Part shown: in pieces, positions 1,380 to 24,333 of the stretch | How positions within the stretch are numbered: position 1 is the first letter of the stretch | How the letters are laid out: each line of letters starts with the position of its first letter | NCBI RefSeq assembly: GCF_003018255.1 | Contig: NZ_CP027440.1 | Source of the DNA: Escherichia coli | GTDB taxonomy: Bacteria; Pseudomonadota; Gammaproteobacteria; Enterobacterales; Enterobacteriaceae | Direction: 5' to 3' (one strand) | Length of the DNA: 64,000 nt | Notes under the pieces: model-generated | The model's input: the letters and a program-made list of their open reading frames with translations, nothing else | What the model was told of the DNA's origin: nothing | The model's database searches: none | Translations under genes and position numbers: made by a program

Positions 1380-1392
1380 AAGCAGCATATGC

Positions 1393-1426
1393 AAAAGGCT
1401 GGATAGAGTGTTACCCCCCTATCCAG
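1393..1426 (-). terminator. candidate intrinsic terminator downstream of yhjJ
   Basis: Inverted repeat CTGGATAG...CTATCCAG followed on the minus strand by CCTTTT; sits between the convergent kdgK and yhjJ genes. Confidence 0.45.
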
Positions 1427-1474
1427 CTCATCCATAAATACCTGATGGTTGTGCTAACTCATCACCATCAGGCA

Positions 1475-2971: not shown

Positions 2972-3150
2972 GTGAACCCCTGATCAACTATCCTGGTAAT
3001 AAAAAAACTGCCCGTTGTCGGTCAGTCTAAATGACGTTAAAAACACTTCGTGTTAGACCGCAAGAACATGAAAATGTCACGGAAGAAGTGAAATAAACCT
3101 GAACTCACCCAGGTGGTAAGTTCAGGCACAGGGGTCAATTATGCGCAAAC

Positions 3151-3178
3151 ACCCGCACTCGGGGAAGGGAGTGCGGGC
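3151..3178 (-). terminator. candidate terminator downstream of dctA
   Basis: GC-rich inverted repeat CCCGCACTC...GAGTGCGGG directly 3' of the dctA stop on the minus strand; the T-tract is weak. Confidence 0.35.
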
Positions 3179-3191
3179 ATAAGTGATGAGA

Positions 3192-4514
<1,323 letters not shown>

Positions 4515-4660
4515 TTATGGGGTACCTGCGGCCCTAAAATAACACCCAGACAACATCACAGAAATGTACCTGGATCATAATTGAAACAAAAAGGTTAAAA
4601 AGTTTGAGCTGGCTCGCACAAACCAGCACTTTTTAAAGTTTTGTAATCAGTTTGGGGTAG

Positions 4661-6649
4661 CTACTTTTCTTCCAGGTAACTCTCTTCGAAGATTTCAATA
4701 GGGAGTGGGCGAGCAAAAAGGAAGCCCTGGGCAATACCAACGCCCGCTTTTGCCAGCCAGTCGCGTTGTGCTTCAGTCTCCACGCCTTCGGCAATCATTT
4801 GTAAGTTCAGGCTTTGCGCCAACATGATAATTGCAGCAATCATGCTGCTATCTTCCGGCAAGCCTTCAACAAACATTTTGTCGATTTTCAGTACGTCGAT
4901 TGGCAACGATTTCATATGCTGCAGCTGACGCAGCCCTGCGTAGCCCATGCCGAAATCATCCAGCGCCACCCGAACTCCGGCATTGCGCAGCGGACGGAGG
5001 ATTGCCACCGCAGCATGAGGGTCGTCAATACGTCGGCTTTCTGTCACTTCCAGAATCAGTGTTCCCGGCTGAATGCGATAGCGGGTTAACAGTTCCAGCA
5101 TATCCGCTACCATATTCGGGTGCATCAGTTGTAGCGCTGAGAGGTTTACCGACAAGGGCAGCATAATGCCGCGCTCTTGCCAGGCAGCAAGCAGTCGACA
5201 AGACTCTTCCAGCACCCAGTGACCAACGGTAACCATCAGCCCACAGCACTCAATGCGATCGATTAAGCCATCCGGCAGATCCCAACTGCCATCCGGTTGC
5301 TGGATACGCAGTAACACTTCCGCACTGACCAGTTTACCGCTGGTCATCTCGACCTGTGGCTGTAACCAAATCGCAAATTGATGATTTTCCAGTGCATTAA
5401 GGATATCGCTCTCTTCCGTCAACCGCTGCTGGGCGGCTTCCATCTGCTGCGGATCAAAGAACTGAATCTGATTTTTGCCTTTATGGCGAGCGGTAAATGC
5501 CGCAGAAATAGCGCGACTGTAAAGCTGTTCGGCGGTGAGATCGCCGTAGAACATCGCCACGCCAATGCTACAGTGCGGACGGAGTTGAATACGTTCAATC
5601 GGCAGGCGCTCGCTCATGATAGTGAGCACTTGCTGACCTAATGTGATAGCGTGCCACGGTTCCTGTACACCGTTGGCAATGACAGCAAAGTCATAACCGC
5701 TAATCTGCGCGAGGATCATGCGTGGCGACAGTACCGATTTGAGTTTTTCCACCAGCGTCAGCAGCAGAATTTCTCGTTGCGCCTCTTTCAGCACGCCCGC
5801 AGTATCACGCAGGGTTTCACAGGTGATGATCATCAGCGCGGTGGTTTGTTTACGCGCGACAACCTGCTCCAGCATCTCCATCAGCAAGGCTTTGTTCGGC
5901 AAATCCGACACCGGGAAGCGCATCGCGTTTTCGTTCTGTTCTTCATAATGGCGCTGCAGCAATTGCTGGTTGAGGTTGTAACTGCGCACCAGCATACCGA
6001 TTTCATCGTCCTGATGCAGACGTGGTAATGCCAGTTGGTGACCAACAAGCTCCTGGGCTGGGATGGCGTTAAGTTCGCGAGCAATATTGCGTAACGGATG
6101 TAAAATCAGTCGATTAATACACCAGCTGATGGCGACGGTCAGGATAAGCGACAAAAGTAAGTAAATGGTCACTAACGTTGAGAGGGTGCTCATCACGAAC
6201 TTATACATACGGAAGGAATCCGCCTGTAGCACCAGATAGGCAATTGGCTGCGGATTTGCCGGACGTTCGAGCGAGTAGACGCCCAGCGAGATTTGAACCG
6301 GTAGCTCAAACAGGCGAGTAACCATTACCGGCACCGGACGCTCTGGAATAAAACTTTTACGCAGCGCCTGGAACTGGTTGGGCAGCACCACATCGGCACG
6401 GCTGACCACGCCTGCCGGTTTAATGCTGGCAAGAATAGCTTCCGCTTCGGGAATATCGCCTTTCAAAATAGCTGAAGATAAGGGTTCGCGGACAGAGCGA
6501 GCAATGCTTTCCAGTTGCGTAGCCGTGTTATAGCGATTCTGCTGGACCAGATGGAACAGCAAAACGGTGCAAAAAATAAAAACGAACACCAGGACAACGG
6601 CTGCCACCATTGCCATCTGCTTGATTGTTAACGAGCGACTTACGCGCAA
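4661..6649 (-). CDS. pdeK: c-di-GMP phosphodiesterase PdeK (YhjK), HAMP-GGDEF-EAL membrane protein
   Basis: 662-aa ORF with an N-terminal TM segment, a degenerate GGDEF region and a C-terminal EAL domain (EVTE...[10 protein letters not shown]...KIDKMFV). Confidence 0.9.
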
Positions 6650-6730
6650 ATTGTCTCCCCCCGGAAATCCCAGATTGCCGCCCGAGTATACCCGATCGCA
6701 GCGGCATTAAGAGAGGCGCTATCTGAAAAC

Positions 6731-9700
6731 TTACCAGTCGGCGTAAGGTATCAGCGGCTGCGGCGGTAAATCCATGTCACCCTGCCATCCGGCGGCGGAA
6801 TAACGTACGTAGAGCAGGAAATGGCTGGGTGCGTAATCTTTCGCCTGCTGGATATCAATTGCCGTGCCGACAAACCAGTTGGAAGTAACACGTCGTTCAA
6901 GTAATGCCCGCGCCGTATAGCCGAAGCCCTGACTGCTGCCGCCATCGTTGGATTGCCGCGCAGCTTCTTCCTGCCAGTCGGTCGGGATCAGATTCATCAG
7001 CGGATAACGCGGCATGGTTTTGGTGCGTGAATGCGACCACGAGCCAGACGCCCCCAGCTCCCACGACCAGTTTTCCGTGCGCTCCCGCCACATCACCGGT
7101 ATGGCAAACGACAGGTATTCCTGCGGGCTGTAGTAACCGCCCTGACCGAGTGAGTAGCCACTCAGGTCTTTGTCGTAATGCCAGATCATGTTGTTCAGGC
7201 CGATTGTGACGCGGCGATTGTTCTGGTTAATGACCTTATAGTAATAGCCCGTCATCCAGCGCACACGCCAGTTATCTTCGACATTTTTACCGGTTAACTG
7301 GTCGCCACTAAGCGATGCCCAGACGCCGTTTGCTTCACCTTTATCGTAGCTCAGGCTTAGCCCCACGCCGTCGGCACGCACGCCGCCCCATTTTTTCCCG
7401 GTATTGCTCGGGGAGTCTTTTTGCCCACCAAAGGCCAGCAAAGAACTGGAGATGGGCCGACGGTGGGCGTTAACGGTGTAACCCAGCGGCCCGATATCAT
7501 CGCTGTAACTGATGCCGCCGACCACATCCACCACGTTGAAGCCCATCGGCGTGGTGCCGATATCCCAGCTCCAGGTGTCGTTGCGCCAACCGACCGCCAC
7601 GCTGGCACCGGAATCCGACTGGCTGCGGTTGCCGCTACAGTCCTGTAATGTACAGGTGCCCCAGTTGTCATCCCATTTACCATCGGCATTAGTGGAGAAA
7701 CTGCCGACGTTCATATTGACGAAATCACTGCGAAAGAACATCCGCCCGTCAGAATACGGCGCATCCACCTGCAACATGGTAGTGTGCGCTTTCAGATCGG
7801 AGTAACCACCGGTGCCGCTCGAACCCCAGTAATCATGCTCAAGGGTGACGTTAAGATCCTGCTGGCGATAGAGGTCCGCCGCATCGCTGCGCACGCCGCG
7901 TTTCAGCCAGTCATCTTTCTCGTCATTGCGGGTCAGTCGGGTAAAGGTGTCGTTATCCAGCGGACGCGTCGTGGTCACACCGGATGCAACCATCGCGTCT
8001 TTGTAGGTTTCCAGCGCCTGCGTTGGATCGCCCGCCTGCGCTTCAAACTTCGCACCATCACGCAGTACCATCGCACTTTCCATCGACGGCGGCTGAGATT
8101 TTGCCAGCGGGATCAACTTATTAAACGTCTGCTGCGCCGCTGCGGTATCGCCAAGCTGCGCCTGTGCCAGCGCCACGCGCCGCTGAGTGTTCAGCGAGGC
8201 GTTATCGGTGGCAGGCAGCTTCGCCAGCTGGCTACGTGCCGCCGCTTTGTCACCGGCAGCAATATCCACTTCCGTCAGACCAAGAATGGCATCGGCGTTA
8301 GTTGGCTCCCGCGTCAGGACATTCTGATATGCAGCGCGAGCGGCGGTGTAATCACGTCGTTGTTGCGCCCAGTCAGCCAGCGTGAGGTCTATGCGCGTGG
8401 AAGGTGGTTGCTGGCGCAGCATCGCTTCCGCTTCAGCTTCTTTGCCGCTTTCTCGCAGGCGATTAGCGGTTTCCAACACCTGATCGCTTTGCAGTCGATT
8501 AACCAGCTCCTGAATATTGCTGCTCCACTGCGCGCGCGGCAGGCTGTTGATATGCGCCAGCGCCGCTCTGTCCTGGTCATGACCAGAGAGATACAGCCCG
8601 TAAGCGTAAACCTGCTCCGGGTCGTTCGGCTTCTGCTGCGCCAGATTACGCATTAACGTATCGGCCTGGCTGCGTTGTCCGGCCTGGCTGCGTTGTCCGG
8701 CCTGCCAGAGATCCTGTGAAAGTCGGTAAGTAATCCATACACTGCCGGGGTCCAGCGCCAGTCGTTGCCGCTGAAGTGCTGCCGCCTGCGCCCATTTCCC
8801 CTGGTTTTCCAGTGCCTCTGCCTGCTGTGCCAGACGGTCGTTTTGCAGGCTGCGTTCGATATCATCAATGCTGCGCCGCTGACTGGCAGAGAGCGAGGCG
8901 ATAAACGCTTCGGCTTTTTCTGGCGACTGCTGGCGGTAAATATTTGCCAGCCCGCGCACGGCGTTAGTGTTGCTACTGTCCATACGCAGCGTCTGCTGGT
9001 AATAGCGTTCAGCGGCGGGGTAATCTTTGCGTGCCATCGCCACATCGCCCAGCCCCAGCACCGCATAGCTGTCGGTGTTATCGACATTACGTGCCTGCTG
9101 GAACAACCGTTCCGCCCGGTCAGGATTATTGGCTTTCAGCGCAGCATCGCCCTGCTGGATTGCCAGCCAGTAGCGGTTTACTTTCAGCAGACTGTTCCAT
9201 TTGTCGTTGTTGCTGCTGTGCGGGTCCAGGGCGAGGGCTTTTTCCAGATTCGCCACCGCATTGGCGCGATCGCCTTTCTGAGAATACGCCTGGCCCAGCG
9301 CCCCCAGAGTCTCACTGTCTTTCGGGTTCGCCCGCACCGCCTGTTGTAGTTCGGGAATGGCTTTACCCGCCATACCAGAGTCCACCGCCGCTAAACCTTG
9401 CGCACGAGCGCGGAAAGCAGGGTCGGCCAGCTGTTTTTGCTGTTCTGCCAGTTGCGATTGTGCAGCCGCCACGCTATCGCCATCGCTAAAGATCGAGAGA
9501 TATTTTTTCAGCGCCGACACGCTGGCATCGCTGACGGGCATGTCTTTAATCTGCCCGTACCAGATTTTAGAGGCCCCCTCGCGCCCGGCGTTTGATTTCG
9601 CCATCTGTTCCAGGACAGCAAAACCTTCGTCACGGCGATCGCTACTAAACAGCAATAGCGCCAGATTGTTTTGCAGGCCCGTATTGCCCGGCGTATCCGC

Positions 9701-10222
9701 ATTAATGCGTTTTAGCTGATTAATCGCTTCGCCACGGCGAGCTGGAATTTTCGCCACCGTACTCCAGTACTCGACGGCAATGTCACCTTCCGGCGGCGCA
9801 CCGTTGAACAGTTTGTTGTAACTCGCCACAGCTTCTTCTGCATGACCGGTCGTCGCCTGCAATCTTGCCTGTTGCAGTGCCTGACGACCATCCGGCGTGG
9901 AAAGCAACATTGTGGTCCGCGACGATTTATACGCATTTGAACTCGGCGCTAACTGCGACAGCCGATCGAGCTGTTTTTGCGCGCCATCAATATCGCCCTG
10001 ACGTAACAGAGAACGGAAACGGGCGGCAACGACGTCCGGGTTATTCGGATCAATAAGTTCCAGACGATACAACGACTGTTGCACCAGGTCTTCACGATGG
10101 GTCGCTTCGCCTAACCGAACTTGCTCCAGCAACTGTTGCTGAGCGGTTGGTGCTGCCTCGACCATCGGCATGACGGCCAGACCGAGGGAAAGCGTGAATA
10201 TGTTTAGTGTGAATTTGCGCAT
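6731..10222 (-). CDS. bcsC: cellulose synthase outer-membrane subunit BcsC (TPR repeats plus C-terminal beta-barrel)
   Basis: 1163-aa ORF with signal peptide, multiple TPR-like repeats and a C-terminal beta-barrel-like region; matches recalled BcsC except for a 6-aa QAGQRS duplication. Confidence 0.93.
8662..8697. repeat. perfect 18-bp tandem duplication (2 copies) inside bcsC
   Basis: CGGCCTGGCTGCGTTGTC occurs twice back to back, followed by a partial third copy CGGCCTG; on the coding strand this gives [12 protein letters not shown] in frame. Confidence 0.9.
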
Positions 10223-11310
10223 TCCTGGCCCCAGTCAGGTAATAACTCACCTTTTGTCGAGAAGCGGAAACGGTGTTGATCCCAGCCTTGTCCAAACAGG
10301 GTCAGCACATAGTTGTAATAGGCATCGCTGCCAGGAAAGTTATCGGCCACGCGCTGGCGCTGAACGGCCTGCGCATCGCGGTTTTGTAAAAAGGGCAGCA
10401 TGGCGGCAGAAAAACCGACCGGTCCTTTACCCTGCGCTTTCCCCGTAGCCACATCCACTTTTTCCGGCGGATAACCGTTTTTCTCAGTGAATGTCGCCAT
10501 CGGTTTAAACCGGTTGAGCATCCGCGCTTTTTGCGGATCGCTGTCAGGCATCATGCCTACCCACATGTAAACGCGGATAGCGTCGTAGCTGCTGATCAAT
10601 GTTTTTTCGGCTTTTAGCTGCCAGCCTTTGTCTTTCTCATAGCGCACCCAGTCTGGCGAAAAGCCTTTCGGGGCGGTTTCCAGCAATAAACGTTGATTGG
10701 TTTCGCGCAGCGTGGTCCACGGCGCGCCAAAGCGGGTGAAATACTGCGCCAGCGTCGGCGGCAGGTAGCTGGGGTTAAAACGCCAGCTGTTATCCTCAGC
10801 AAACCCCACTTTGCCCGGTAACAACATGGAGCCCAGCCCAGGCACCGTCACCACTTCCTCCCGCGCGATACGTTTTAGCAATGCGCTGCCGATGTCGGTA
10901 TAACGCTGCTCTTTCCACAAACGCCCCGCCTCCAGCAACGCCCAGGCCATCCAGACATCACCATCGGAGGCCGAATTGCTGTCCAGCACTTCCCACTTAC
11001 TGTTCTCTTTCTTGCCCCACAGCCAGGCGGGCAAATGTTCTGTTAAAGAACCCTGAGCGAGATTGTTCTGCGTCCAGTCGAGAAGATTATCGAAAGCTGC
11101 ACGGTCGTTAGCCGCCAGGGCAAAGAACATGCCGTAACTTTGCCCTTCGGAGGTGGTGATTTTGCGCGCGTCGCTGGGGTCGATGACGCGCCCTTCCTGA
11201 CTGATGTAATCCTTTTTAAACTGCTCCCAGGCAGGCCAGGTACAGGCTGCCTGAACACTAAAGGCAGCCAGCAGCAGCATCGTCACGAGTCCACTACGCA
11301 ACACATTCAT
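10204..11310 (-). CDS. bcsZ: endo-1,4-beta-glucanase (GH8) BcsZ
   Basis: ORF 10204..11316 begins at TTG; the ATG at 11308..11310 gives [21 protein letters not shown]... (368 aa), matching recalled BcsZ. Overlaps the bcsC start by 19 nt. Confidence 0.9.
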
Positions 11311-11316
11311 CTTCAA

Positions 11317-13656
11317 TTACTCGTTATCCGGGTTAAGACGACGACGACTAATAATACGCAGCAGACGCCACAGTACCCACGCCAGCAATATCACACTGAT
11401 AGCCGCCAGCACCGCCAGCAGAATCGGATGGTTTGCCAGCGCATACCACAAGCGCTCGAACCACGGCAGATGACCTACGTAATAAACATCGCCAACACGT
11501 AGGCTGTTGATACCGGACTCGCGGATCACCGCGACCGAACCGAACATGGTGGCGCGTTTGCCGCTATCGTTCACCGCATCGTTAAGCATTTCATAACCGC
11601 GTGGGCTATCTGCCAGCAGCGCAATCACGCTGCGCTGGTCGTTATACGGCGACTGGAAGCCAATCACCGCCGCCATCGCACCGGAAGAGGTCAGCGTTGA
11701 CTGGGTTTCTGCCGCGCGATCGCTCTCGTCCGGCACAATACCGGGGAACGGGGTCTGGCGCATCGGCGTTTTTACCCAGCTTTCGGTAGCCTGCACCAAC
11801 AGGTCGATCTGCTTGTCATCTTTCAGTTTGTCCGGGATACCACCGACGATCATGATGTCGGCATCTTTGCCCTGAATGGTGCTGCCATCATCGGTCACCG
11901 TCAGGTTAATCGCCGGGAAGCCCGTCTGCGCACCGATAAAGCCAACGGTATTCAGCAAGGTTTCCATCTGTGCTTCGTTTGGCGTTTTCGGCATCACGGT
12001 GATGGTTTGCGACAAATCCGCCATCCGGCTGAACGGGAAGCCCGCGTTAGCAAAGGCGCGTAGATCCGGCATCGGGATGAAGTGGTAATACTTCGAGAAG
12101 TCGATGGTGGAATCATCACCAATCACCACATGATTCTGCACCGGCTGGAAGGTAATGCAGTTATCCACCGAACCGCCCGGCATCGGGTTCATATACTCAA
12201 AGTCAAAGCGCAGCTGGTTGGTCGCGCCCAGTTTCAGCGCCGGAATAGAGACATCCGTTTTGCCATCCAGCAAACCTTGTAATACCGGAATACGCAGCAG
12301 CAGGCGGTTCGCCTCCTGTTTACTGCTCAGGTTGAAGGATTGCAGGAACTGGTTATTCAGGCTGATATCCATCCGTGAGCTGTCTTTCACTGGCGGCATG
12401 GTGTAGCGATAATTAATATCCATATCAATGCCGGTACTGCGCATCAGGTAGAGATCCGGTGGCAGGTTTAGCGAAACGTTAATCGCTGCTGGCTCAAGAC
12501 CGCTGGATTGTAACTGTTCTTCATAGGTTTTCAGTTCACCAAAGGTAACCGGACGATCGGTACGCACCCAGTTCGGCGCATCGTACGGCTTACGCGGTAG
12601 CAGCGGTTTCACTTCATTCACTACCACGCTTTCACCACGGAACAGAATGTTACCCTGAGCGATACCTTTCGCTGCCTGCAACAGGTCTTTGTCGTCACGA
12701 CCAAACACCACCAGCAGTTTGACATAAGGATTCTGCGGATGGTTGATCATTTCAATCACCGGGGCTTTTACCGCCGGATGATCGCGCAGGAAGTCCGGGC
12801 GTTTGTCATTGGTGGCAAAAACGATGGCATTGCGATCCGGCAATTGGTTATAGAGCACCGGGAAGTTCTGCCCACGCCAGCCAGAACGCGAACCAAACCA
12901 CGAGGCAACAATGGCAGATGCTTGTTGCAGCCCAACATCCGGCGCACCCGCAAAGACCATCGGCAAGGTGTTGGTGCGGTTATCACGCGGGTCAAAGAAT
13001 GGCACCGGGAAGTGTGACAGGTCATTCTTCACATTCAGGGTCTGATAGGTCAGATCCAGTCCACTGCTCCGCCCAACATCCAGCCAAAGCGTGGTGCTGG
13101 CCGGGTTTTCGCACACGTCCTGATAATGACCGACAAACTCCAGCCGCACACGGTTGAAGTCGGTAATAAACAGTGGGTTAATGGGCATTTGTGCCAGCGT
13201 TTTTTTACCCAACTGTTCTTTGGTCACTGGCAGCACGCCCATCAGTTCATCATTGAGATAAACCTTTAACTGCGACTGGACAGGCAGTAACGATGGCGAT
13301 GGCGTGTATTCGAGATTGAGCATCGCCTTCGTCACCACTTCATCGCTGCGCATACCAAACTCAATGCTGCCGTTCGGGTTAATGCCACGTAGCACCATGC
13401 TGCCCGGCGGCGGCGCAATTTGCGCAAAGGTCAGCTTCACATCACGCGAAGGACCGTTCTGCGCCACGACTGGCGCATCAGCGCCCTGCACGCCCGGCAT
13501 CACTTGCCCCACCTGCGGATTTTGTTCCGTCTGGGCGGCTACAGCTGGCTCAGCATTGATCAGTGGTTGCGTTGCTGGCGTCGCCTGCGTCATGAAAGAG
13601 GGGAACGCACTCATCCCCATAGCCACTGCACAAATCCAGAATAGTTTTCTTTTCAT
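11317..13656 (-). CDS. bcsB: cellulose synthase periplasmic subunit BcsB
   Basis: 808-aa ORF; the internal start MKRKLFWICAVAMGMSAFPSF (ATG at 13654..13656) gives 779 aa and matches recalled BcsB. C-terminal TM anchor present. Confidence 0.9.
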   Translation of the reverse strand: MKRKLFWICAVAMGMSAFPSFMTQATPATQPLINAEPAVAAQTEQNPQVGQVMPGVQGADAPVVAQNGPSRDVKLTFAQIAPPPGSMVLRGINPNGSIEFGMRSDEVVTKAMLNLEYTPSPSLLPVQSQLKVYLNDELMGVLPVTKEQLGKKTLAQMPINPLFITDFNRVRLEFVGHYQDVCENPASTTLWLDVGRSSGLDLTYQTLNVKNDLSHFPVPFFDPRDNRTNTLPMVFAGAPDVGLQQASAIVASWFGSRSGWRGQNFPVLYNQLPDRNAIVFATNDKRPDFLRDHPAVKAPVIEMINHPQNPYVKLLVVFGRDDKDLLQAAKGIAQGNILFRGESVVVNEVKPLLPRKPYDAPNWVRTDRPVTFGELKTYEEQLQSSGLEPAAINVSLNLPPDLYLMRSTGIDMDINYRYTMPPVKDSSRMDISLNNQFLQSFNLSSKQEANRLLLRIPVLQGLLDGKTDVSIPALKLGATNQLRFDFEYMNPMPGGSVDNCITFQPVQNHVVIGDDSTIDFSKYYHFIPMPDLRAFANAGFPFSRMADLSQTITVMPKTPNEAQMETLLNTVGFIGAQTGFPAINLTVTDDGSTIQGKDADIMIVGGIPDKLKDDKQIDLLVQATESWVKTPMRQTPFPGIVPDESDRAAETQSTLTSSGAMAAVIGFQSPYNDQRSVIALLADSPRGYEMLNDAVNDSGKRATMFGSVAVIRESGINSLRVGDVYYVGHLPWFERLWYALANHPILLAVLAAISVILLAWVLWRLLRIISRRRLNPDNE

Positions 13657-13666
13657 CGCGTTATCA

Positions 13667-16285
13667 TCATTGTTGAGCCAAAGCCTGATCCGATGGTTGT
13701 GCCGTTTCGCTCCGCTCCGGGCGGCGCGGAATAAACGATACAACCCAGGAAACCAGAGAAGTCAGCACACGGAATATGCCCTTCACCGAAGAAGGCGCAA
13801 ACTCCGCCAGATGGCGGTAGCCACGGAAGCCGAGCTTCAGAATATCCAGCAGACTTTCCAGCGGCTTATCTTCCGGATAGCTGTCCTGCCAGAGCGCCCA
13901 TGTATCCGCACGGGCAAACGTACACTGCACAAAATCGATATGTTGCTGGGTGGTGAGCGGCATTAATTTCAACCCAACTTCATTACCCATCACGCGCGCC
14001 ACCTGGGTCGGGAAGACGTATTCCTGCTGACCGCGTTTAAGCAACAGATTCACTTTCTGCCCTTCCAGAATCTGCGCCTGACCGTTGATCTTGATCCCCA
14101 AACCACCGTCGGAGAAATCCTGAACGGTACACGAGAAGAGGTGACCATCTTCGCGGGCAATTGCTGCGGGCATCGTCATCTCCACGCGGTGCGATCGGCG
14201 TACCTGTTTGCTTTCTACCGATACTGCGACTGCGCCGCCGAGAATAATCAGGTTGTAGAATACCCACACCATACTGACGACCACGGTGAGCATCTCAGTT
14301 GGCGGACCATAGAAGTAGCGCCAGATCCCAACCGCTACGCCCACCAGGTTGAGCAGAACAAGGAAGATGTAGGGCCGCGAGATCACCCAGTCGACGTACT
14401 CTTCTTCCACCAGTCCACCTTTGGCGGTGACGTTAAATTTGCCTTTGTGCGGGTTAATCAGCGCCACCAGCGTCGGTGGTGCGATATACCACGCCAGCAC
14501 TGTTTCGTAGATTTCACTCCAGAAAGAGTGGCGATATTTGCCCTGGATCTTCGAGTTAGTCAGGCTGGCATGGATCATATGCGGTAGCACGAACAGGGCG
14601 ATCATCAACGCTGGCGCGTAGATGATGTAGGCATGAAACAGCAGGAACGCCAGCGGCGCAGTCAGGAAGATCAGCCGTGGAATGCCCGACAAGAAATGGA
14701 ACATGGCGTTGACATAGCACAGCCGCTGAGCAAACTTCAGCCCTTTACCGGTGAGTGGGTTATCGAGACGGAAGATTTGCACCATCCCGCGCGCCCAGCG
14801 AATACGCTGACCGATATGCGCCGAGAGACTTTCGGTCGCCAGCCCCGCTGCCTGCGGAATACGCATATACGCTGAGGTGTAGCCACGACGGTGCAGACGC
14901 AGAGAAGTGTGCGCATCTTCGGTTACCGTTTCGACAGCAATTCCGCCAATCTCATCCAGCGGCTTACGGCGAATCACCGCACATGAACCGCAGAAGAAAG
15001 TGGCATCCCACATATCATTGCCGTCCTGCACCAGACCATAAAACAGCGTGCCTTCGTTCGGCGTTTTACGAAAACGCCCCAGGTTGCGTTCAAACGGATC
15101 CGGCGAGAAGAAGTGGTGCGGCGTCTGCATCATCGCCAGCTGTTTCTCTTTCAGGAACCAGCCCATGGTCATTTGCAGGAACGATCGCGTTGGTACGTGG
15201 TCGCAGTCGAATATCGACACGAACTCGCCTTTGGCATATTTCAGCGCATTGTTGATGTTGCCCGCTTTCGCATGTTCATGAGTGGTACGGGCGATATATT
15301 TCACCCCCACGTTTTGCGCAAACTGGCGAAACTCTTCCCTGCCGCCGTCATCGAGGATCCAGATGTTCAGCTTGTCTTTCGGCCAGTCGATACCCAGCGA
15401 AGCGTAAATGGTATTTTTCACCACGTTGAGATCTTCGTTGTAAGTCGGGACAAAGATATCCACCGACGGCCACAGCGACATATCTTTCGGCAATGGCACC
15501 GGCTGACGATTCAGAGGCCATACGACCTGGAAATAGCCGAGCACCAGCACAATCCACGCGTACGTTTCGGCGAACAGCAGAATAAGCCCGCACACCAGGC
15601 TGACCGGATCGTCCCAGTTCAGCGTAGAGGTGTAGCGCCACCAGATATAACGGCAAGAAACGGTCAGCGACAGCACAATCAACATTAGCGCCGAGAAGCG
15701 CCCCGGCATCCGCCGTACGATCAGCGCTACACCCCACAGCAGCATCAGGAAAATAAACTGCGCCAGCGGGTTAAACGGCTGGGTAACGCAGATTAACGCC
15801 AGAATCAGCGAGAAGGTGACGATGATACCGAGGATCAACCGCCGCGCCCCGGCGCTCAAATGGCCGAGTTCTTTTTTCTCATCGAGATGCTGTGTTTTAT
15901 GGCTAACGCGCTCAGGCAGCTCGTTCATCCATTGATGGTAACGTCCACGAATATTTTGTAGACCTGAAAATGCCCGCCTGCGCGGTTTCGGCGTTTCTTT
16001 GCGCGATGCACCGATCAGTAACCAGCATGTTTGAATAAGATAACGGACCGGGTCCAGCGGACGCGGACGCGAGGCGTTGATATGCGGATACAGGTTTTTA
16101 TGTTCTGCGCGAATACGCTGCCAGCGCGGGTGCTCCAGCGGAATAAAAATCCAGGCCAGGATCATCCAGAAACAGCCAAGCGTCGCGCTGAAAGCCGACG
16201 CGCCGTGACGACGATAATCGCGATAACGCCCAATAAGCCGTGCGTTGACCGGCGGGATAAGCAACCACCGGGTCAGGATACTCAT
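13667..16285 (-). CDS. bcsA: cellulose synthase catalytic subunit BcsA (GT2 plus PilZ)
   Basis: Internal start MSILTRWLLIPPVNARL (ATG at 16283..16285) gives 872 aa; contains the GT2 motifs (DDG, FFCGS, QRIRW) and a C-terminal PilZ region. The ATG overlaps the bcsQ stop (ATGA). Confidence 0.95.
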   Translation of the reverse strand: MSILTRWLLIPPVNARLIGRYRDYRRHGASAFSATLGCFWMILAWIFIPLEHPRWQRIRAEHKNLYPHINASRPRPLDPVRYLIQTCWLLIGASRKETPKPRRRAFSGLQNIRGRYHQWMNELPERVSHKTQHLDEKKELGHLSAGARRLILGIIVTFSLILALICVTQPFNPLAQFIFLMLLWGVALIVRRMPGRFSALMLIVLSLTVSCRYIWWRYTSTLNWDDPVSLVCGLILLFAETYAWIVLVLGYFQVVWPLNRQPVPLPKDMSLWPSVDIFVPTYNEDLNVVKNTIYASLGIDWPKDKLNIWILDDGGREEFRQFAQNVGVKYIARTTHEHAKAGNINNALKYAKGEFVSIFDCDHVPTRSFLQMTMGWFLKEKQLAMMQTPHHFFSPDPFERNLGRFRKTPNEGTLFYGLVQDGNDMWDATFFCGSCAVIRRKPLDEIGGIAVETVTEDAHTSLRLHRRGYTSAYMRIPQAAGLATESLSAHIGQRIRWARGMVQIFRLDNPLTGKGLKFAQRLCYVNAMFHFLSGIPRLIFLTAPLAFLLFHAYIIYAPALMIALFVLPHMIHASLTNSKIQGKYRHSFWSEIYETVLAWYIAPPTLVALINPHKGKFNVTAKGGLVEEEYVDWVISRPYIFLVLLNLVGVAVGIWRYFYGPPTEMLTVVVSMVWVFYNLIILGGAVAVSVESKQVRRSHRVEMTMPAAIAREDGHLFSCTVQDFSDGGLGIKINGQAQILEGQKVNLLLKRGQQEYVFPTQVARVMGNEVGLKLMPLTTQQHIDFVQCTFARADTWALWQDSYPEDKPLESLLDILKLGFRGYRHLAEFAPSSVKGIFRVLTSLVSWVVSFIPRRPERSETAQPSDQALAQQ

Positions 16286-17034
16286 GATGCACTCCCGACT
16301 GGCGTTTTCAGCCCGGAATAGTTCAACAGGCACCAGTTCGCCAGCGTCAGTATTTCTTCAGCCGCCAGCGCATCACTGCGAAATTCACCGACTGGTTGCT
16401 TAGCTGCCAGACATTCAGCCATCGCTTCATCACGATGAATGAGCATCGGCAGCAATCGGCGCTGGCTTTGCAACCAAAGCTGGTAAATATCGTCCTGAAC
16501 CTGGCTGCCAATACGGAAGTCATTAATCAAAATATGTGCACCATCCGGCAGCGCTTGCTGATGCAGTCGGATATGGCAGTTGGCATCCACATTGACGATT
16601 GCCAGCGAGTGATCGCACAAACTCAGCAGCTGGTGGGTTATCTGCGAGGCATCACGCGGTAAGTCAATTAAAATCCACTGGTAACGCCCGCTGGCTTTTA
16701 GTTGCTGTAAGCCGGTGCAAATATCGCTCAGCCGGGTTTGCCAGTGCTGTGGATTTTCTTGTTCTTCAATGGATAACTGACCAAAAGGCAGCAAATCGAG
16801 CTGCGAGGTATAGCGCAACCCGGCGTCACGCCAGTCCTGGCCATCCAGCATAGCTCTGGCCCAACCCTGACGGTGGGTAAAATCAACGTTAAATGACAGG
16901 CGCAACAAGTTGTCCGGGCAGGCATCGACCACCAGGACATTTTCTCCCAACATTTGTAATGACCAGGCTAATGCGGCGGTGATGGTTGTTGTCCCCACGC
17001 CTCCCCGAACCCCCTGCAATCCCAGTACGGCCAT
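16282..17034 (-). CDS. bcsQ: cellulose biosynthesis ParA/MinD-like ATPase BcsQ, intact
   Basis: 250-aa ORF MAVLGLQGVRGGVGTTTITAALAW...; codon 6 is TTG (Leu), so the reading frame is uninterrupted. Confidence 0.9.
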   Translation of the reverse strand: MAVLGLQGVRGGVGTTTITAALAWSLQMLGENVLVVDACPDNLLRLSFNVDFTHRQGWARAMLDGQDWRDAGLRYTSQLDLLPFGQLSIEEQENPQHWQTRLSDICTGLQQLKASGRYQWILIDLPRDASQITHQLLSLCDHSLAIVNVDANCHIRLHQQALPDGAHILINDFRIGSQVQDDIYQLWLQSQRRLLPMLIHRDEAMAECLAAKQPVGEFRSDALAAEEILTLANWCLLNYSGLKTPVGSAS

Positions 17035-17045
17035 TCACCAATCCC

Positions 17046-17234
17046 CTACTTTTGTTGCGCAAACTCTGCCAGCAACGGCCAGCGTTTTAATGCCGCGGCC
17101 AACTGTTCGCGTTGGGAAATATCGGCATAATCAATATCAGGCAGTGAAAATGCCTGCTTTAACGCCAAAATATCATTCTGGAAGATATAGCCTATCGCGG
17201 GATCAGGCAGAGTATCTGGTTCATTGTTATTCAT
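17046..17234 (-). CDS. bcsR: cellulose biosynthesis protein BcsR (YhjR)
   Basis: 62-aa ORF MNNNEPDTLPDPAIGYIFQNDILALKQAF... immediately upstream of bcsQ; matches recalled YhjR. Confidence 0.85.
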   Translation of the reverse strand: MNNNEPDTLPDPAIGYIFQNDILALKQAFSLPDIDYADISQREQLAAALKRWPLLAEFAQQK

Positions 17235-17506
17235 TTTTCTTGATCCCTATGAAATAACCGTACCGTTCATGAGACAATTCTAACTGTGAGCATTTCGTCG
17301 GTTTATTGTTTACGGCGAGACGGGAATGTGCTCACTTTTTGACTTTCCGTTACGCAACAGAAAAAGTTAAAAACGAAAAGACTAAAATCACATGTCTTGT
17401 GACCTGCTAAATTGATTCACATGCTAAATCTGATAAGTTTTAATTTCAATGGTAGGTTTATTTCTTAGCTTTCGCTAGTAAACTGATAATCAGACAAAAT
17501 GTTGAC
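17235..17506. promoter_or_regulatory. divergent bcsRQABZC / bcsEFG promoter region
   Basis: 272-bp AT-rich intergenic region between the divergently oriented bcsR and bcsE starts; individual promoter elements not resolved. Confidence 0.5.
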
Positions 17507-19078
17507 ATGAGGGACATTGTGGACCCTGTATTCTCTATCGGTATCTCATCATTATGGGATGAGCTGCGACATATGCCAGCAGGCGGCGTCTGGTGGTTTA
17601 ACGTCGATCGCCATGAAGATGCTATCAGTCTGGCGAATCAAACAATTGCATCCCAGGCTGAAACCGCACACGTCGCGGTCATTAGCATGGACAGCGATCC
17701 AGCGAAAATCTTTCAATTAGATGATTCTCAAGGGCCGGGAAAAATAACATTATTTTCAATGCTAAATCATGAAAAAGGTCTATACTATTTGGCCCGTGAT
17801 TTGCAGTGTTCTATTGATCCCCATAATTACCTTTTTATTCTTGTTTGCGCAAATAACGCATGGCAAAACATTCCTGCCGAGCGGCTTCGCTCATGGTTGG
17901 ATAAAATGAATAAATGGAGCCGGCTAAACCATTGTTCGCTTTTGGTAATTAATTCCGGAAATAATAACGATAAACAATTTTCATTGTTACTTGAGGAATA
18001 CCGTTCACTTTTTGGTCTTGCCAGTTTGCGTTTTCAGGGCGACCAACATTTGCTGGATATTGCTTTCTGGTGCAACGAAAAAGGGGTCAGCGCCCGTCAG
18101 CAGCTTAGCGTTCAGCAACAAAATGGTTGCTGGACATTAGTTCAACACCAGGAGGCGGAAATCCAACCACGCAGCGACGAAAAACGCATTCTGAGTAATG
18201 TTGCTGTACTGGAAGGTGCGCCGCCGCTATCGGAACACTGGCAACTGTTCAACAATAACGAAGTCCTGTTCAATGAAGCCCGTACCGCTCAGGCGGCGAC
18301 GGTGGTCTTTTCTTTACAGCAAAATGCACAAATCGAGCCACTGGCCCGCAGCATTCATACTCTGCGTCGCCAGCGCGGTAGTGCGATGAAAATCCTCGCA
18401 CGGGAAAATACCGCCAGCCTGCGCGCCACCGATGAACGTTTATTATTGGCCTGCGGTGCAAATATGGTTATCCCGTGGAATGCGCCACTCTCCCGCTGTC
18501 TGACGATGATCGAAAGCGTGCAAGGGCAGAAGTTTAGTCGCTATGTGCCGGAAGATATCACTACCTTGCTGTCAATGACCCAGCCGCTCAAACTGCGTGG
18601 TTTCCAGAAGTGGGATGTGTTCTGTAATGCCGTCAACAACATGATGAATAACCCTCTATTACCTGCCCACGGTAAAGGCGTTCTGGTTGCCCTACGTCCG
18701 GTACCGGGTATCCGCGTTGAGCAAGCCCTGACGCTATGTCGCCCTAACCGTACCGGCGATATCATGACCATTGGCGGTAATCGGCTGGTGCTGTTTCTCT
18801 CATTCTGTCGGATTAACGATCTGGATACCGCGTTGAATCATATTTTCCCATTGCCTACTGGCGACATTTTCTCAAACCGAATGGTCTGGTTTGAAGATGA
18901 TCAAATCAGTGCCGAGCTGGTGCAGATGCGCCTGCTTGCCCCAGAACAATGGGGCATGCCGCTGCCTTTAGCGCAAAGTTCTAAACCGGTCATCAATGCC
19001 GAGCACGATGGTCGCCACTGGCGACGAATACCAGAACCAATGCGACTGTTAGATGATGCTGTGGAGCGCTCATCATGA
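17507..19078 (+). CDS. bcsE: c-di-GMP-binding cellulose biosynthesis protein BcsE (GIL domain)
   Basis: 523-aa [41 protein letters not shown]..., matching recalled BcsE. Confidence 0.9.
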
Positions 19079-19266
19079 TGACCATCAGCGATATCATTGA
19101 AATTATTGTCGTTTGCGCACTGATATTTTTCCCGCTGGGCTATCTGGCGCGGCACTCTTTGCGACGCATTCGCGACACCTTACGTTTGTTCTTTGCTAAA
19201 CCTCGTTATGTTAAACCGGCCGGGACGTTACGCCGCACGGAAAAAGCCAGGGCAACCAAAAAATGA
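19075..19266 (+). CDS. bcsF: small membrane protein BcsF
   Basis: 63-aa [38 protein letters not shown]... with a single TM helix; 4-nt overlaps with bcsE and bcsG. Confidence 0.85.
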
Positions 19267-20943
19267 CTCAATTTACGCAAAATACCGCCATGCCTTCTTC
19301 CCTCTGGCAATACTGGCGCGGCCTTTCCGGCTGGAACTTCTATTTTCTGGTTAAGTTCGGCCTGTTGTGGGCGGGATATCTTAACTTCCATCCGCTCCTC
19401 AATCTGGTGTTTGCCGCGTTTCTGCTGATGCCCATTCCGCGCTACAGCCTGCATCGCTTGCGCCACTGGATTGCCCTGCCGATCGGCTTTGCTTTGTTCT
19501 GGCATGACACCTGGTTGCCTGGCCCGGAAAGCATAATGAGCCAGGGTTCGCAGGTGGCGGGGTTCAGTACCGATTATTTAATCGATCTTGTCACACGCTT
19601 TATTAACTGGCAGATGATTGGGGCCATTTTTGTTTTATTCGTGGCCTGGTTATTCCTGTCACAATGGATTCGCATTACCGTTTTTGTGGTTGCCATTCTG
19701 CTATGGCTGAACGTACTTACCCTGGCGGGACCAAGTTTCTCCTTGTGGCCAGCCGGTCAACCGACGACCACTGTAACAACGACGGGTGGTAACGCAGCGG
19801 CAACCGTTGCGGCGACGGGTGGCGCACCGGTAGTGGGTGATATACCCGCACAAACTGCACCGCCAACAACAGCAAACCTTAACGCCTGGCTGAATAATTT
19901 CTATAACGCGGAGGCGAAACGTAAATCGATCTTCCCGTCTTCGCTGCCCGCTGATGCTCAGCCATTTGAACTACTGGTGATTAATATCTGTTCGCTTTCC
20001 TGGTCGGATATTGAAGCCGCCGGATTAGATGTCGCATCCACTGTGGTCGCATTTCGATATTGAGTTCAAGAACTTTAACTCCGCCACCTCCTACAGTGGC
20101 CCGGCGGCGATCCGTTTACTGCGCGCCAGCTGCGGGCAGACTTCGCACACTAATCTGTATCAACCGGCAAATAACGACTGCTATCTGTTTGATAACCTGT
20201 CGAAACTGGGCTTTACCCAGCACCTGATGATGGGACATAACGGCCAGTTCGGTGGTTTTTTGAAGGAAGTTCGCGAAAATGGCGGCATGCAGAGCGAATT
20301 GATGGATCAAACAAATCTGCCGGTTATTTTGCTGGGCTTTGATGGTTCGCCGGTTTATGACGATACCGCCGTGCTTAACCGTTGGCTGGACGTTACCGAA
20401 AAAGATAAAAACAGCCGTAGTGCCACGTTCTACAACACGCTTCCACTGCATGACGGCAACCATTATCCGGGCGTCAGCAAAACAGCGGATTACAAAGCGC
20501 GGGCGCAAAAATTCTTTGATGAACTGGACGCCTTCTTTACTGAACTGGAGAAATCGGGTCGTAAAGTGATGGTGGTCGTGGTGCCGGAACACGGCGGCGC
20601 GCTGAAGGGCGACAGAATGCAGGTATCTGGCCTACGTGATATCCCTAGCCCGTCTATCACAGACGTCCCCGTTGGGGTGAAATTCTTCGGCATGAAGGCA
20701 CCACATCAGGGGGCACCGATTGTCATCGACCAACCGAGCAGCTTCCTGGCTATCTCCGATCTGGTGGTTCGCGTTCTTGATGGCAAGATTTTCTCCGAAG
20801 ACAATGTTGACTGGAAAAAACTCACCAGTGGGTTGCCACAAACAGCACCGGTCTCCGAGAACTCAAATGCAGTAGTTATTCAATACCAGGATAAACCGTA
20901 CGTTCGCCTGAACGGCGGCGACTGGGTGCCTTACCCGCAATAA
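19263..20943 (+). pseudogene. bcsG: bcsG (cellulose phosphoethanolamine transferase) disrupted by a +1 frameshift
   Basis: Two out-of-frame overlapping ORFs, 19263..20063 (266 aa, membrane domain) and 20029..20943 (304 aa, catalytic domain), total 559 codons after removing the 35-nt overlap. The junction reads GGATTAGATGTCG where an intact frame needs GGATTAATGTCG (extra G near 20028). Confidence 0.75.
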
Positions 20944-21029
20944 GAACGAAAAAGGCCGCAGAGTTTCACCCCTGCGGCCTGATCCGGGCGCAAATTGCCA
21001 TTACGGCAGCCTGACGCCCGCATGACACG

Positions 21030-21137
21030 TTACTTCCGCTTGTTCAGCCAGTTCACGATCATGCTGGCAAGAATGCCAGCAATGATCGGAGCCGCTAAAT
21101 CATGCCAGAAGGCCATGCCCAGTTCTGCGAGCGTCAT
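21030..21137 (-). CDS. ldr: Ldr-family type I toxin, copy 1 (35 aa)
   Basis: MTLAELGMAFWHDLAAPIIAGILASMIVNWLNKRK, the C-terminal 35 aa of the 80-aa track ORF; LdrD-like single-TM peptide. Terminator hairpin AGGCCGCAG...CTGCGGCCT with T-tract just 3' at about 20950..20985. Confidence 0.8.
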   Translation of the reverse strand: MTLAELGMAFWHDLAAPIIAGILASMIVNWLNKRK

Positions 21138-21184
21138 ATAGCCGCCTGTGTTGTAATGACAACGTTTCGCGGCTATTCTTGAGT

Positions 21185-21250
21185 TGTTTGGGTTCAAGAA
21201 TGGCCCCCGTGGTGTTGTCAGGTGCATACCTGCAACGTGCGGGGGTTTTC
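21185..21250 (+). ncRNA. rdl: Rdl-like antisense RNA, copy 1 (boundaries approximate)
   Basis: Plus-strand hairpin GCCCCCG...CGGGGG followed by TTTTCTCT (21203..21249), antisense to the ldr leader; 5' end estimated from the roughly 66-nt Rdl length. Confidence 0.45.
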
Positions 21251-21512
21251 TCTCTCCAGCAAACAATGCCACCAGGGATTAAGCCCCCGCAACATTGCGC
21301 CTCACCGGAACCTTTCCGGCTTGCCGCTGATTCTACGACTGTTTTTCTGCTCCGGAATCCGTCACGTCTTCACTCTGTGCTGCGCATTCCGCAGAATATT
21401 ATCCGCTTGCAACCGTTGCATTTTTCTTACGAAAAAGGCCGCAGAGTTTTATCCCTGCGGCCTGATCCGGGCGCAACTTGCCATTACGGCAGCCTGACGC
21501 CCGTCTGACACG

Positions 21513-21620
21513 TTACTTCCGCTTATTCAGCCAGTTCACGATCATGCTGGCAAGAATGCCAGCAATGACCGGAGCCGCTAAATCATGCCAGAAGGCCATG
21601 CCCAGCTCTGCGAGCGTCAT
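21513..21620 (-). CDS. ldr: Ldr-family type I toxin, copy 2 (35 aa)
   Basis: MTLAELGMAFWHDLAAPVIAGILASMIVNWLNKRK; I18V relative to copy 1. Confidence 0.8.
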   Translation of the reverse strand: MTLAELGMAFWHDLAAPVIAGILASMIVNWLNKRK

Positions 21621-21667
21621 ATAGCCGCCTGAGTTGTAATGACAACGTTTCGCGGCTATTCTTGAAT

Positions 21668-21733
21668 GGTCTAGATGCAAGAATGGCCCCCGTGGTGTTG
21701 TCAGGTGCATACCTGCAACGTGCGGGGGTTTTC
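21668..21733 (+). ncRNA. rdl: Rdl-like antisense RNA, copy 2 (boundaries approximate)
   Basis: Same hairpin and T-tract 483 bp downstream of copy 1. Confidence 0.4.
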
Positions 21734-21995
21734 TCTCTCCAGCAACCAATGCCACCAGGGATTAAGCCCCCGCAACATTGCGCCTCACCGGAACCTTTCC
21801 GGCTTGCCGCTGATTCTACGACTGTTTTTCTGTTCCGGAATCCATCACTTCTTCACTCTGTGCTGCGCATTCCGCAGAATATTATCCGCTTGCAACCGTT
21901 GCATTTTTCTTACGAAAAAGGCCGCAGAGTTTTATCCCTGCGGCCTGGTCCGGGCGCAAATTGCCATTACGGCAGCCTGACGCCCGTCTGACACG

Positions 21996-22103
21996 TTACT
22001 TCCGCTTATTCAGCCAGTTCACGATCATGCTGGCAAGAATGCCAGCAATGACCGGAGCCGCTAAATCATGCCAGAAGGCCATGCCCAGCTCTGCGAGCGT
22101 CAT
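21996..22103 (-). CDS. ldr: Ldr-family type I toxin, copy 3 (35 aa)
   Basis: MTLAELGMAFWHDLAAPVIAGILASMIVNWLNKRK; identical in protein to copy 2. Confidence 0.8.
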   Translation of the reverse strand: MTLAELGMAFWHDLAAPVIAGILASMIVNWLNKRK

Positions 22104-22150
22104 ATAGCCGCCTGAGTTGTAATGACAACGTTTCGCGGCTATTCTTGAGT

Positions 22151-22216
22151 TGTGTAGGTTCAAGAATGGCCCCCGTGATGTTGTCAGGTGCATACCTGCA
22201 ATATGCGGGGGTTTTC
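22151..22216 (+). ncRNA. rdl: Rdl-like antisense RNA, copy 3 (boundaries approximate)
   Basis: Same hairpin and T-tract in the third unit. Confidence 0.4.
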
Positions 22217-22478
22217 TCTCTCCAGCAACCAATGCCACCAGGGATTAAGCCCCCGCAACATTGCGCCTCACCGGAACCTTTCCGGCTTGCCGCTGATTCT
22301 ACGACTGTTTTTCAGCTCCGAAATCCGTCACTTCTTCACTCTGTGCTGTGCATTCCGCAGAATATTATCCGCTTGCAACCGTTGCATTTTTCTTACGAAA
22401 AAGGCCGCAGAGTTTTATCCCTGCGGCCTGATCCGGGCGCAAATTGCCATTACGGCAGCCTGACGCCCGTCTGACACG

Positions 22479-22586
22479 TTACTTCCGCTTGTTCAGCCAG
22501 TTCACGATCAGACTGGCAAGAATGCCAGCTATGACCGGAGCCGCTAAATCATGCCAGAAGGCCATGCCCAGTTCTGCGAGCGTCAT
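22479..22586 (-). CDS. ldr: Ldr-family type I toxin, copy 4 (35 aa)
   Basis: MTLAELGMAFWHDLAAPVIAGILASLIVNWLNKRK; M26L relative to copies 2 and 3. Confidence 0.8.
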   Translation of the reverse strand: MTLAELGMAFWHDLAAPVIAGILASLIVNWLNKRK

Positions 22587-22633
22587 ATAGCCGCCTGTGT
22601 TGTAATGACAACGTTTCGCGGCTATTCTTGAGT

Positions 22634-22699
22634 GGTCTAGGTTCAAGATTAGCCCCCGTGATGTTGTCAGGTGCATACCTGCAACGTGCGGGGGTTTTC
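22634..22699 (+). ncRNA. rdl: Rdl-like antisense RNA, copy 4 (boundaries approximate)
   Basis: Same hairpin and T-tract in the fourth unit. Confidence 0.4.
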
Positions 22700-23061
22700 T
22701 CTCTCCAGCAACCAATGCCACCAGGGATTAAGCCCCCGCAACATTGCGCCTCACCGGAACCTTTCCGGCTTGCCGCTGATTTTACGATTGCTTTTTACCG
22801 TCAGCACCCGGCAATCTTCCTCATTGCGTGATGCCTTCCAGCTTAATTTCTTTATTTGCATTAGTTGCAGTTCATATCCGGGCTGACTCCAGACTGGTAG
22901 TGAAATGCGCAATTTTGTAGAATTGCGCCTCCTCGCGACCTCCCCAGTGAATCTGTTGCCTCATTTTTTACATACTGCGTATTCGACTTCTCCACCTGTT
23001 GCGCAAGAGAAACTGGGTTTATTCATTTTTGCGAGGCCGACTTCTTTCTGGACAGGACTTT

Positions 23062-24333
23062 ATGCAGCACAACACACTACCGAAACACGATCAGAAAATG
23101 CCGTTTACACGCTACGACTTCGGCTGGGTTTTATTATGCATAGGCATGGCGATTGGTGCCGGAACCGTGCTGATGCCAGTACAAATTGGCTTGAAGGGAA
23201 TTTGGGTATTTATTACCGCAGCGATCATTGCTTATCCTGCCACCTGGGTAGTGCAGGACATTTATTTAAAAACCCTTTCTGAAAGCGATTCCTGTAATGA
23301 CTACACCGATATTATCAGTCATTACCTGGGGAAGAACTGGGGAATTTTCCTCGGGGTTATCTACTTTTTGATGATTATCCACGGGATTTTTATCTACTCT
23401 CTCTCCGTGGTTTTCGACAGCGCCTCGTACCTGAAAACCTTCGGTTTAACCGATGCCGATCTTTCACAATCTCTACTTTATAAAGTCGCCATTTTCGCCG
23501 TACTGGTGGCAATTGCGTCTGGTGGTGAACGATTACTGTTTAAGATTTCCGGGCCAATGGTGGTGGTCAAAGTAGGGATTATTGTCGTCTTCGGTTTTGC
23601 GATGATCCCGCACTGGAATTTCGCCAATATAACCGCCTTCCCGCAAGCCTCCGTCTTCTTCCGCGACGTCCTGCTTACTATTCCTTTTTGCTTCTTTTCT
23701 GCGGTATTTATTCAGGTGCTAAACCCGATGAATATTGCCTACCGCAAACGGGAAGCGGATAAAGTACTGGCAACCCGGCTCGCGCTGCGTACCCACCGAA
23801 TTAGTTATGTCACGCTCATCGCGGTGATCCTATTTTTTGCCTTTTCGTTTACCTTCTCAATTAGCCACGAAGAAGCCGTTTCTGCCTTTGAACAAAATAT
23901 CTCGGCACTGGCACTGGCCGCGCAGGTGATCCCTGGGCATATCATTCATATCACCTCGACGGTGCTGAATATCTTTGCCGTACTGACCGCATTCTTTGGC
24001 ATTTATCTCGGTTTCCACGAGGCCATTAAAGGCATTATTCTCAATCTGTTAAGCCGAATTATTGATACCAAGAAAATTAACTCACGCATGCTGACTCTGG
24101 CGATCTGCGCTTTTATCGTCATTACGTTGACGATTTGGGTCTCGTTTCGTGTATCGGTGCTGGTGTTCTTTCAGTTGGGAAGCCCGTTATATGGCATTGT
24201 GTCGTGCCTCATTCCATTTTTCCTGATCTATAAAGTCGCACAACTGGAAAAACTTCGCGGGTTTAAAGCCTGGCTGATTCTGCTTTACGGCATTTTGCTA
24301 TGCTTGTCGCCACTGTTGAAGCTGATTGAGTAA
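23062..24333 (+). CDS. yhjV: HAAAP-family (serine/aromatic amino acid-type) transporter YhjV
   Basis: ORF 22999..24333; internal ATG at 23062 gives [34 protein letters not shown]..., a multi-TM permease matching recalled YhjV. Confidence 0.88.

Follow-up and report, generated by a model that had tools for sequence, protein, structure and literature searches.

The bcsG gene of the E. coli strain analyzed here carries one extra nucleotide, an A at position 20027, which breaks its reading frame and leaves the Zn ligands of BcsG divided between two ORFs. We put the probability that this is a genuine single-nucleotide insertion, private to the strain, that made bcsG a pseudogene at roughly 0.8. 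The stretch of DNA examined (the window) is a 64 kb segment of the E. coli chromosome that contains the whole cellulose locus, in which bcsG is the final gene of bcsEFG, an operon divergent from bcsRQABZC. The positions of the relevant features are collected in Table 1.

Table 1. Cellulose genes, bcsG fragments, and the inserted base in the 64 kb window.
Feature	Coordinates	Strand	Remarks
bcsG, probable pseudogene, whole gene	19263..20943	+	1681 nt, one more than the usual 1680; differs from bcsG of GCA_040411395.1 only by the inserted base
Inserted A, the frameshift itself	20027..20027	+	Alignments to JNE23-011 and L012; Logan assembly of SRR8931299
5′ ORF, 266 aa	19263..20063	+	BcsG residues 1-255, then the 11-aa out-of-frame tail DVASTVVAFRY and a TGA stop; ORFs, PF11658
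3′ ORF, 304 aa	20029..20943	+	BcsG Met256-Gln559; ORFs, PF11658
bcsE, intact	17507..19078	+	Upstream gene of the bcsEFG operon
bcsF, intact	19075..19266	+	Upstream gene of the bcsEFG operon
bcsR, intact	17046..17234	-	bcsRQABZC operon (6731..17234); no internal stops or indels relative to JNE23-011
bcsQ, intact, 250 aa	16282..17034	-	No internal stops or indels relative to JNE23-011
bcsA, intact	13667..16285	-	No internal stops or indels relative to JNE23-011
bcsB, intact	11317..13656	-	No internal stops or indels relative to JNE23-011
bcsZ, intact	10204..11310	-	No internal stops or indels relative to JNE23-011
bcsC, intact	6731..10222	-	No internal stops or indels relative to JNE23-011

In other strains bcsG is annotated as a single 1680-nt gene encoding a 559-aa protein, and the intact BcsG of the sister allele aligns with the BcsG of PDB entry 9b8v over residues 1-559. 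The window instead contains a 5′ ORF whose product ends in ...EAAGLDVASTVVAFRY and a 3′ ORF whose product starts with MSHPLWSHFDIEF. The 3′ ORF lies in the +1 frame relative to the 5′ ORF, the two share 35 nt (20029..20063), and both match the Pfam family CBP_BcsG (PF11658). The original prediction had described a bcsG split by a +1 frameshift into ORFs of 266 and 304 aa with a 35-nt overlap, in place of a homologous protein of 559 aa. These coordinates and frames were confirmed, the full length holds for both the annotated strains and the repaired allele, and alignment to intact bcsG bears out a single-base insertion.

We located the insertion by alignment to the annotated bcsG of ChlosBP-23-1, to which the window gene is 99.9% identical, the two differing by a single gap and a single SNP. 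Where the intact allele has GGATTGATG, the window has GGATTAGATG, the difference being one added A at 20027. This base falls between nt 764 and 765 of bcsG (c.764_765insA) and turns Leu255, encoded by TTG, into TTA-G. The junction string GGATTAGATGTCG is present at 20022..20034, as had been read previously. Its extra base had been taken to be a G, relative to an expected GGATTAATGTCG; we reject this string as the in-frame reference and identify the inserted base as the A (TT-A-G), because TTA occurs at codon 255 in none of 10 aligned bcsG sequences. Eight aligned bcsG sequences, whether intact or mutated elsewhere, all have TTG at codon 255, and the closest relatives, including the sister contig, carry the intact allele GGATTGATGTCG with TTG at Leu255. 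Apart from the 1-nt insertion, the remaining sequence is 99.9-100% identical to intact bcsG, which rules out a chance pattern of ORFs. Judged from the alignments, the two ORFs are one frameshifted bcsG pseudogene rather than a functional BcsG family member. In genome annotation, they should be merged and flagged as such.

The position of the break can be read against the known architecture of the protein. The five TM helices at the N terminus of BcsG are connected by a linker of ∼30-45 residues to a periplasmic alkaline-phosphatase-like domain in which Ser278 is the nucleophile and Cys243, Ser278, Glu442, and His443 are Zn ligands (PMC11379886, PMC8892547). The repaired translation of the window gene matches the published numbering at Cys243, Tyr277, Ser278, Cys290, Cys306, Glu442, His443, and Arg458. 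Crystallized catalytic constructs in the PDB span residues 163-559 and 185-559, and the frame break at codon 255/256 lies about 70-90 residues into the crystallized domain. The construct limits and the positions of the catalytic residues are incompatible with a break at the boundary between membrane and catalytic domains, and the earlier division of the gene into a “membrane-domain” and a “catalytic-domain” ORF needs to be amended: the gene is cut inside the catalytic domain.

What remains in frame on the 5′ ORF is the set of five TM helices, the linker, and roughly 45-70 residues from the start of the catalytic domain, the Zn ligand Cys243 among them; 11 nonsense residues follow. Tyr277, Ser278, Cys290, Cys306, Glu442, His443, and Arg458 are all encoded by the 3′ ORF, in whose 304 aa we found no hydrophobic or TM segment and no signal peptide (maximum 19-residue hydropathy of 0.27). 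Window bcsG, with its products of 266 and 304 aa, does not encode one polypeptide in which five TM helices, a linker, and the catalytic domain are joined. It likewise does not place the four Zn ligands on one exported domain, as Cys243 lies on the 5′ ORF and Ser278, Glu442, and His443 lie on a 3′ ORF that has no export signal.

A contig of a clonal sister (L012, GCA_040411395.1) provides the intact allele in a close relative against which the truncating change stands out. This contig corresponds to window positions 1317..23657, a match of 22,341 nt with 0 mismatches, except that the A at 20027 is missing, and it carries an intact bcsG encoding a 559-aa BcsG. The repaired 559-aa protein is among the commonest BcsG alleles, with entries in 27,737 blocks of the sequence collection. 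A protein search and cluster look-up found the exact 266-aa product only on one Logan contig, from one run, and on one NCBI chromosome. Using a 100-nt query across the junction, we detected the A insertion in 0 of 5,349 complete E. coli genomes (top match, 99.0% over 99 nt), which provides no sign of the clonal spread that would make the allele a lineage marker; a W247* allele query, the positive control for this search, returned three exact 100% matches. The sister contig, the widespread repaired protein, and the search of complete genomes together indicate that the insertion appears to be very recent and private to this strain.

An error of sequencing or assembly had been put forward as an equally possible source of the frameshift. 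An error of this kind, in which the strain has an intact bcsG and the extra A belongs to the consensus only, would agree with a single-base indel restricted to one lineage, missing from every complete RefSeq genome searched and from a sister contig that is identical over 22 kb. We now consider it the weaker option and improbable, as the same A was reproduced in a separate de Bruijn-graph assembly. From the Logan assembly of run SRR8931299 we retrieved 4,737 nt that are 100% identical to window positions 16263..20999, the A insertion included; JNE23-011, the closest complete genome, differs from the window by 26 SNPs over the same interval. The SRR8931299 contig encodes the exact 266-aa product together with its out-of-frame tail. 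This contig stops where the ldr tandem repeats start, as expected for a short-k-mer assembly, while the window spans the repeats and therefore comes from a different assembly.

General features of the window also argue against an artefact. Comparison of all 64 kb with JNE23-011 gave 114 SNPs and exactly one indel, the A at 20027, and none of 40 other genes checked in the first 49 kb contains an internal stop. The assembly is therefore not generally indel-prone, and poor overall assembly quality was rejected as the cause of the frameshift. The local context, TT-A-GA, is not a homopolymer, has no GATC nearby, and has its nearest CCTGG 24 nt upstream, which is a misfit with the usual long-read error patterns. 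SRR8931299 may consist of reads of the same isolate, in which case it would confirm the base in that DNA preparation and not in the natural population. A real mutation that arose in a laboratory stock, during isolation or passage, would be consistent with an A found in a single genome and a single read set when the sister contig and the widespread repaired allele are intact, and enterobacteria are well known to lose matrix production in laboratory passage. The many independent bcsG truncations in natural isolates make a natural origin equally plausible, however, and we regard a laboratory origin as a real but rather unlikely prospect.

We find it scarcely credible that the split gene still works, whether by programmed +1 ribosomal frameshifting, which would restore the full-length protein, or by reassembly of two separate polypeptides. 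Some reinitiation is conceivable, because the native ATG of the 3′ ORF lies right after the insertion and the two ORFs overlap; only a weak GGA is found 7-9 nt upstream of this ATG. The arrangement is not conserved, however, given its absence from the complete genomes searched, and every other bcsG sequence in the alignment keeps its frame there. No prfB-type motif, consisting of a shift-prone codon, a poor stop, and an upstream Shine-Dalgarno sequence, is present in 20022..20063 (GGA TTA GAT GTC GCA TCC ACT GTG GTC GCA TTT CGA TAT TGA), nor does this interval offer a shift-prone site with an upstream Shine-Dalgarno sequence and a hungry stop or a homopolymer for transcriptional slippage. The 3′ product, having neither signal peptide nor TM segment, cannot be exported to join the Cys243 of the 5′ fragment in the periplasm. 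PGAP also calls the analogous W247* allele a pseudogene. Recoding and a functional split gene were rejected on the basis of this lack of conservation, the missing shift signal, and the placement of the fragments in different compartments.

For a frameshifted bcsG pseudogene, we propose that ribosomes would make a 266-aa membrane-anchored fragment consisting of the TM helices, the linker, the early alkaline-phosphatase-like domain with Cys243, and 11 nonsense residues. A product started at Met256, if any, would have neither the export signal nor the beginning of the catalytic domain with Cys243, and would be cytoplasmic and inactive. Transfer of pEtN to cellulose would be lost, and the N-terminal BcsG domain, which has been reported to stabilize membrane BcsA, would be retained. 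Loss of pEtN-cellulose or of cellulose output despite an intact bcsQ had been predicted originally. We consider loss of pEtN transferase activity likely, given a frame break that separates Cys243 from Ser278, Glu442, and His443, and both bcsQ and all other bcs genes are indeed intact (Table 1). With bcsG at the end of its operon, the insertion has no polar effect and no downstream gene is affected.

Published work on bcsG informs the expected phenotype. Within BcsG, the N-terminal half helps to maintain BcsA integrity, and the catalytic domain sets the efficiency of cellulose secretion (PMC8892547); a role of the N-terminal half in BcsA stability has also been described elsewhere (PMC6611641). 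A UTI89 ΔbcsG strain still makes a cellulosic product, without pEtN (PMC6685106). In Salmonella Typhimurium ST313 strain D23580, bcsG has a premature stop at residue 247 (Singletary 2016, cited in MacKenzie 2019, PMC6611641), and the latter article reports reduced rdar morphotype and calcofluor binding with residual cellulose still measurable. Because the N-terminal domain is reported to stabilize BcsA, unmodified cellulose would be expected rather than complete loss of cellulose. Considered with the ST313 stop and the UTI89 deletion, this makes unmodified cellulose at a reduced or moderate level, together with a changed rdar/Congo-red morphotype, the most likely phenotype, rather than a cellulose-negative one.

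The quantitative phenotype is uncertain because the effect of bcsG loss on the amount of cellulose varies by strain and species (PMC8892547). For this strain, we would predict a biofilm matrix without pEtN-cellulose, a weaker curli-cellulose composite, an altered rdar morphotype, and possibly a changed interaction with the host. Together with GCA_040411395.1, to which it is matched over 22 kb, the window strain would form a natural near-isogenic pair for the effect of a BcsG truncation at residue 255 on BcsA stability and cellulose output.

The ST313 allele is a close counterpart among the known loss-of-function alleles, in that both genes keep the TM domain, the linker, and Cys243 and lose Ser278 and the rest of the catalytic domain, the ST313 stop lying 8 codons upstream. 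The two differ in that the ST313 allele is a nonsense substitution (G>A) that is fixed in an epidemic lineage and has been tested experimentally, whereas the window allele is a 1-nt insertion that is private to one E. coli strain and known from sequence alone. Laboratory E. coli K-12 offers a second parallel. Cellulose synthesis has been lost altogether in K-12, through bcsQ and polarity on bcsA, and a bcsQ stop codon in these cellulose-negative laboratory strains was reportedly described by Serra et al. in 2013. In K-12 as in the window strain, a single point mutation is enough to silence the output of a bcs locus that is otherwise complete; in K-12, however, bcsQ is hit, whereas the window strain has an intact bcsQ and only the modification enzyme BcsG is affected.

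On a larger scale, Nhu et al. (2024) described convergent loss-of-function in bcsRQABZC-bcsEFG, with mutations present in 74 of the 76 common E. coli STs, including 27 independent events in ST95 and a BcsG frameshift at aa 418 in O1:H7, as well as bcs loss-of-function in Shigella and Salmonella (PMC10881479). The supplementary file with Supplementary Data 3 of that study contains the term “truncated.bcsG” at least 183 times (PMC10881479). These alleles resemble the window allele in being frameshift or nonsense changes that disable cellulose production or its pEtN modification in a bcs locus that is otherwise intact. Most of them mark clonally expanded branches and are linked to virulence (PMC10881479), whereas the window allele shows no sign of clonal expansion. 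The window allele is a new, private allele of a gene decay already documented for bcs in E. coli and Salmonella, and its contribution to the field is no more than a single further example of a well-described pattern.

We also recovered other natural E. coli bcsG knock-outs by a look-up of the ORF that starts at Met256. These comprise W247* (TAG, on two SNP backgrounds), W247* (TGA), G254*, W209*, and W129*, and downstream of each of these breaks gene callers give the same 304-aa ORF as in the window. All are substitutions, and none has the +A at codon 255 seen in the window. The W247* change is carried by L004, L005, and L010 (nt 740 of bcsG), by L008 (nt 741), and by the RefSeq strains AVS0747, ECO20, and ECO21. 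The TAG W247* allele is present exactly in 3 of 5,347 complete RefSeq genomes, where PGAP/RefSeq flag it as “pseudo, internal stop”. Among the public E. coli assemblies, L009 has G254* and L007 has W129*, and L006 combines W209* with a 33-nt in-frame deletion (nt 518-550) in the Thr/Gly/Ala-rich linker. Trp247 of E. coli bcsG, turned into a stop independently in these alleles, is also the residue at which Salmonella Typhimurium ST313 D23580 has its stop.

Codons 247-255 hold five of the seven alleles recovered, the window L255 frameshift included, within nine codons, in a look-up that finds only breaks lying between the last good upstream start and Met256 and is biased to this interval. One reading of such a cluster would be a recurrently selected “scaffold-only” class, in which the BcsA-stabilizing TM domain and linker are kept and pEtN transfer is removed; alleles of this kind, if the reading is true, would replace pEtN-cellulose in the matrix by plain cellulose and would not abolish cellulose. 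The ST313 stop at 247, the E. coli W247* alleles from two substitutions on two backgrounds, G254*, and the L255 frameshift would all fit. We nevertheless hold recurrent selection to be quite doubtful, because the look-up favors breaks a short way upstream of Met256, Trp codons are by nature liable to nonsense mutation, and BcsG fragments of 312-432 aa are also common.

One protein cluster (P0002-P0015) contains 275 N-terminal BcsG fragments, ranging from 155 to 432 aa. Recurring sizes include 332 aa on 24 contigs, among them a 5.25-Mb chromosome, and 323 aa on 23 contigs, and a 432-aa fragment lies on a 4.75-Mb chromosome. “Partial” BcsG fragments of ∼249-338 aa occur on contigs of ∼31-32 kb, which may reflect assemblies that break inside bcsG in some lineage, possibly at an IS insertion.

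Two further features of the locus vary among strains or annotations. The protein encoded by bcsE is given as 523 aa in RefSeq annotations and some loci and as 519 aa in others, a mere choice of start codon. On the 3′ side of bcsG, the window contains four tandem ldr toxin units, followed by yhjV and dpp. The repeat array spans 20946..22796 and consists of 3.8 tandem copies of a 483-bp unit, with 96% matches. Each unit contains a minus-strand ORF for a 35-aa Ldr type I toxin (21030..21137, 21513..21620, 21996..22103, and 22479..22586). The copy number of this unit in the bcsG-yhjV spacer is strain-variable, with one copy in L001, L004, L006, and L009, two in L005, L007, and L013, and four in the window, L002, and L012.
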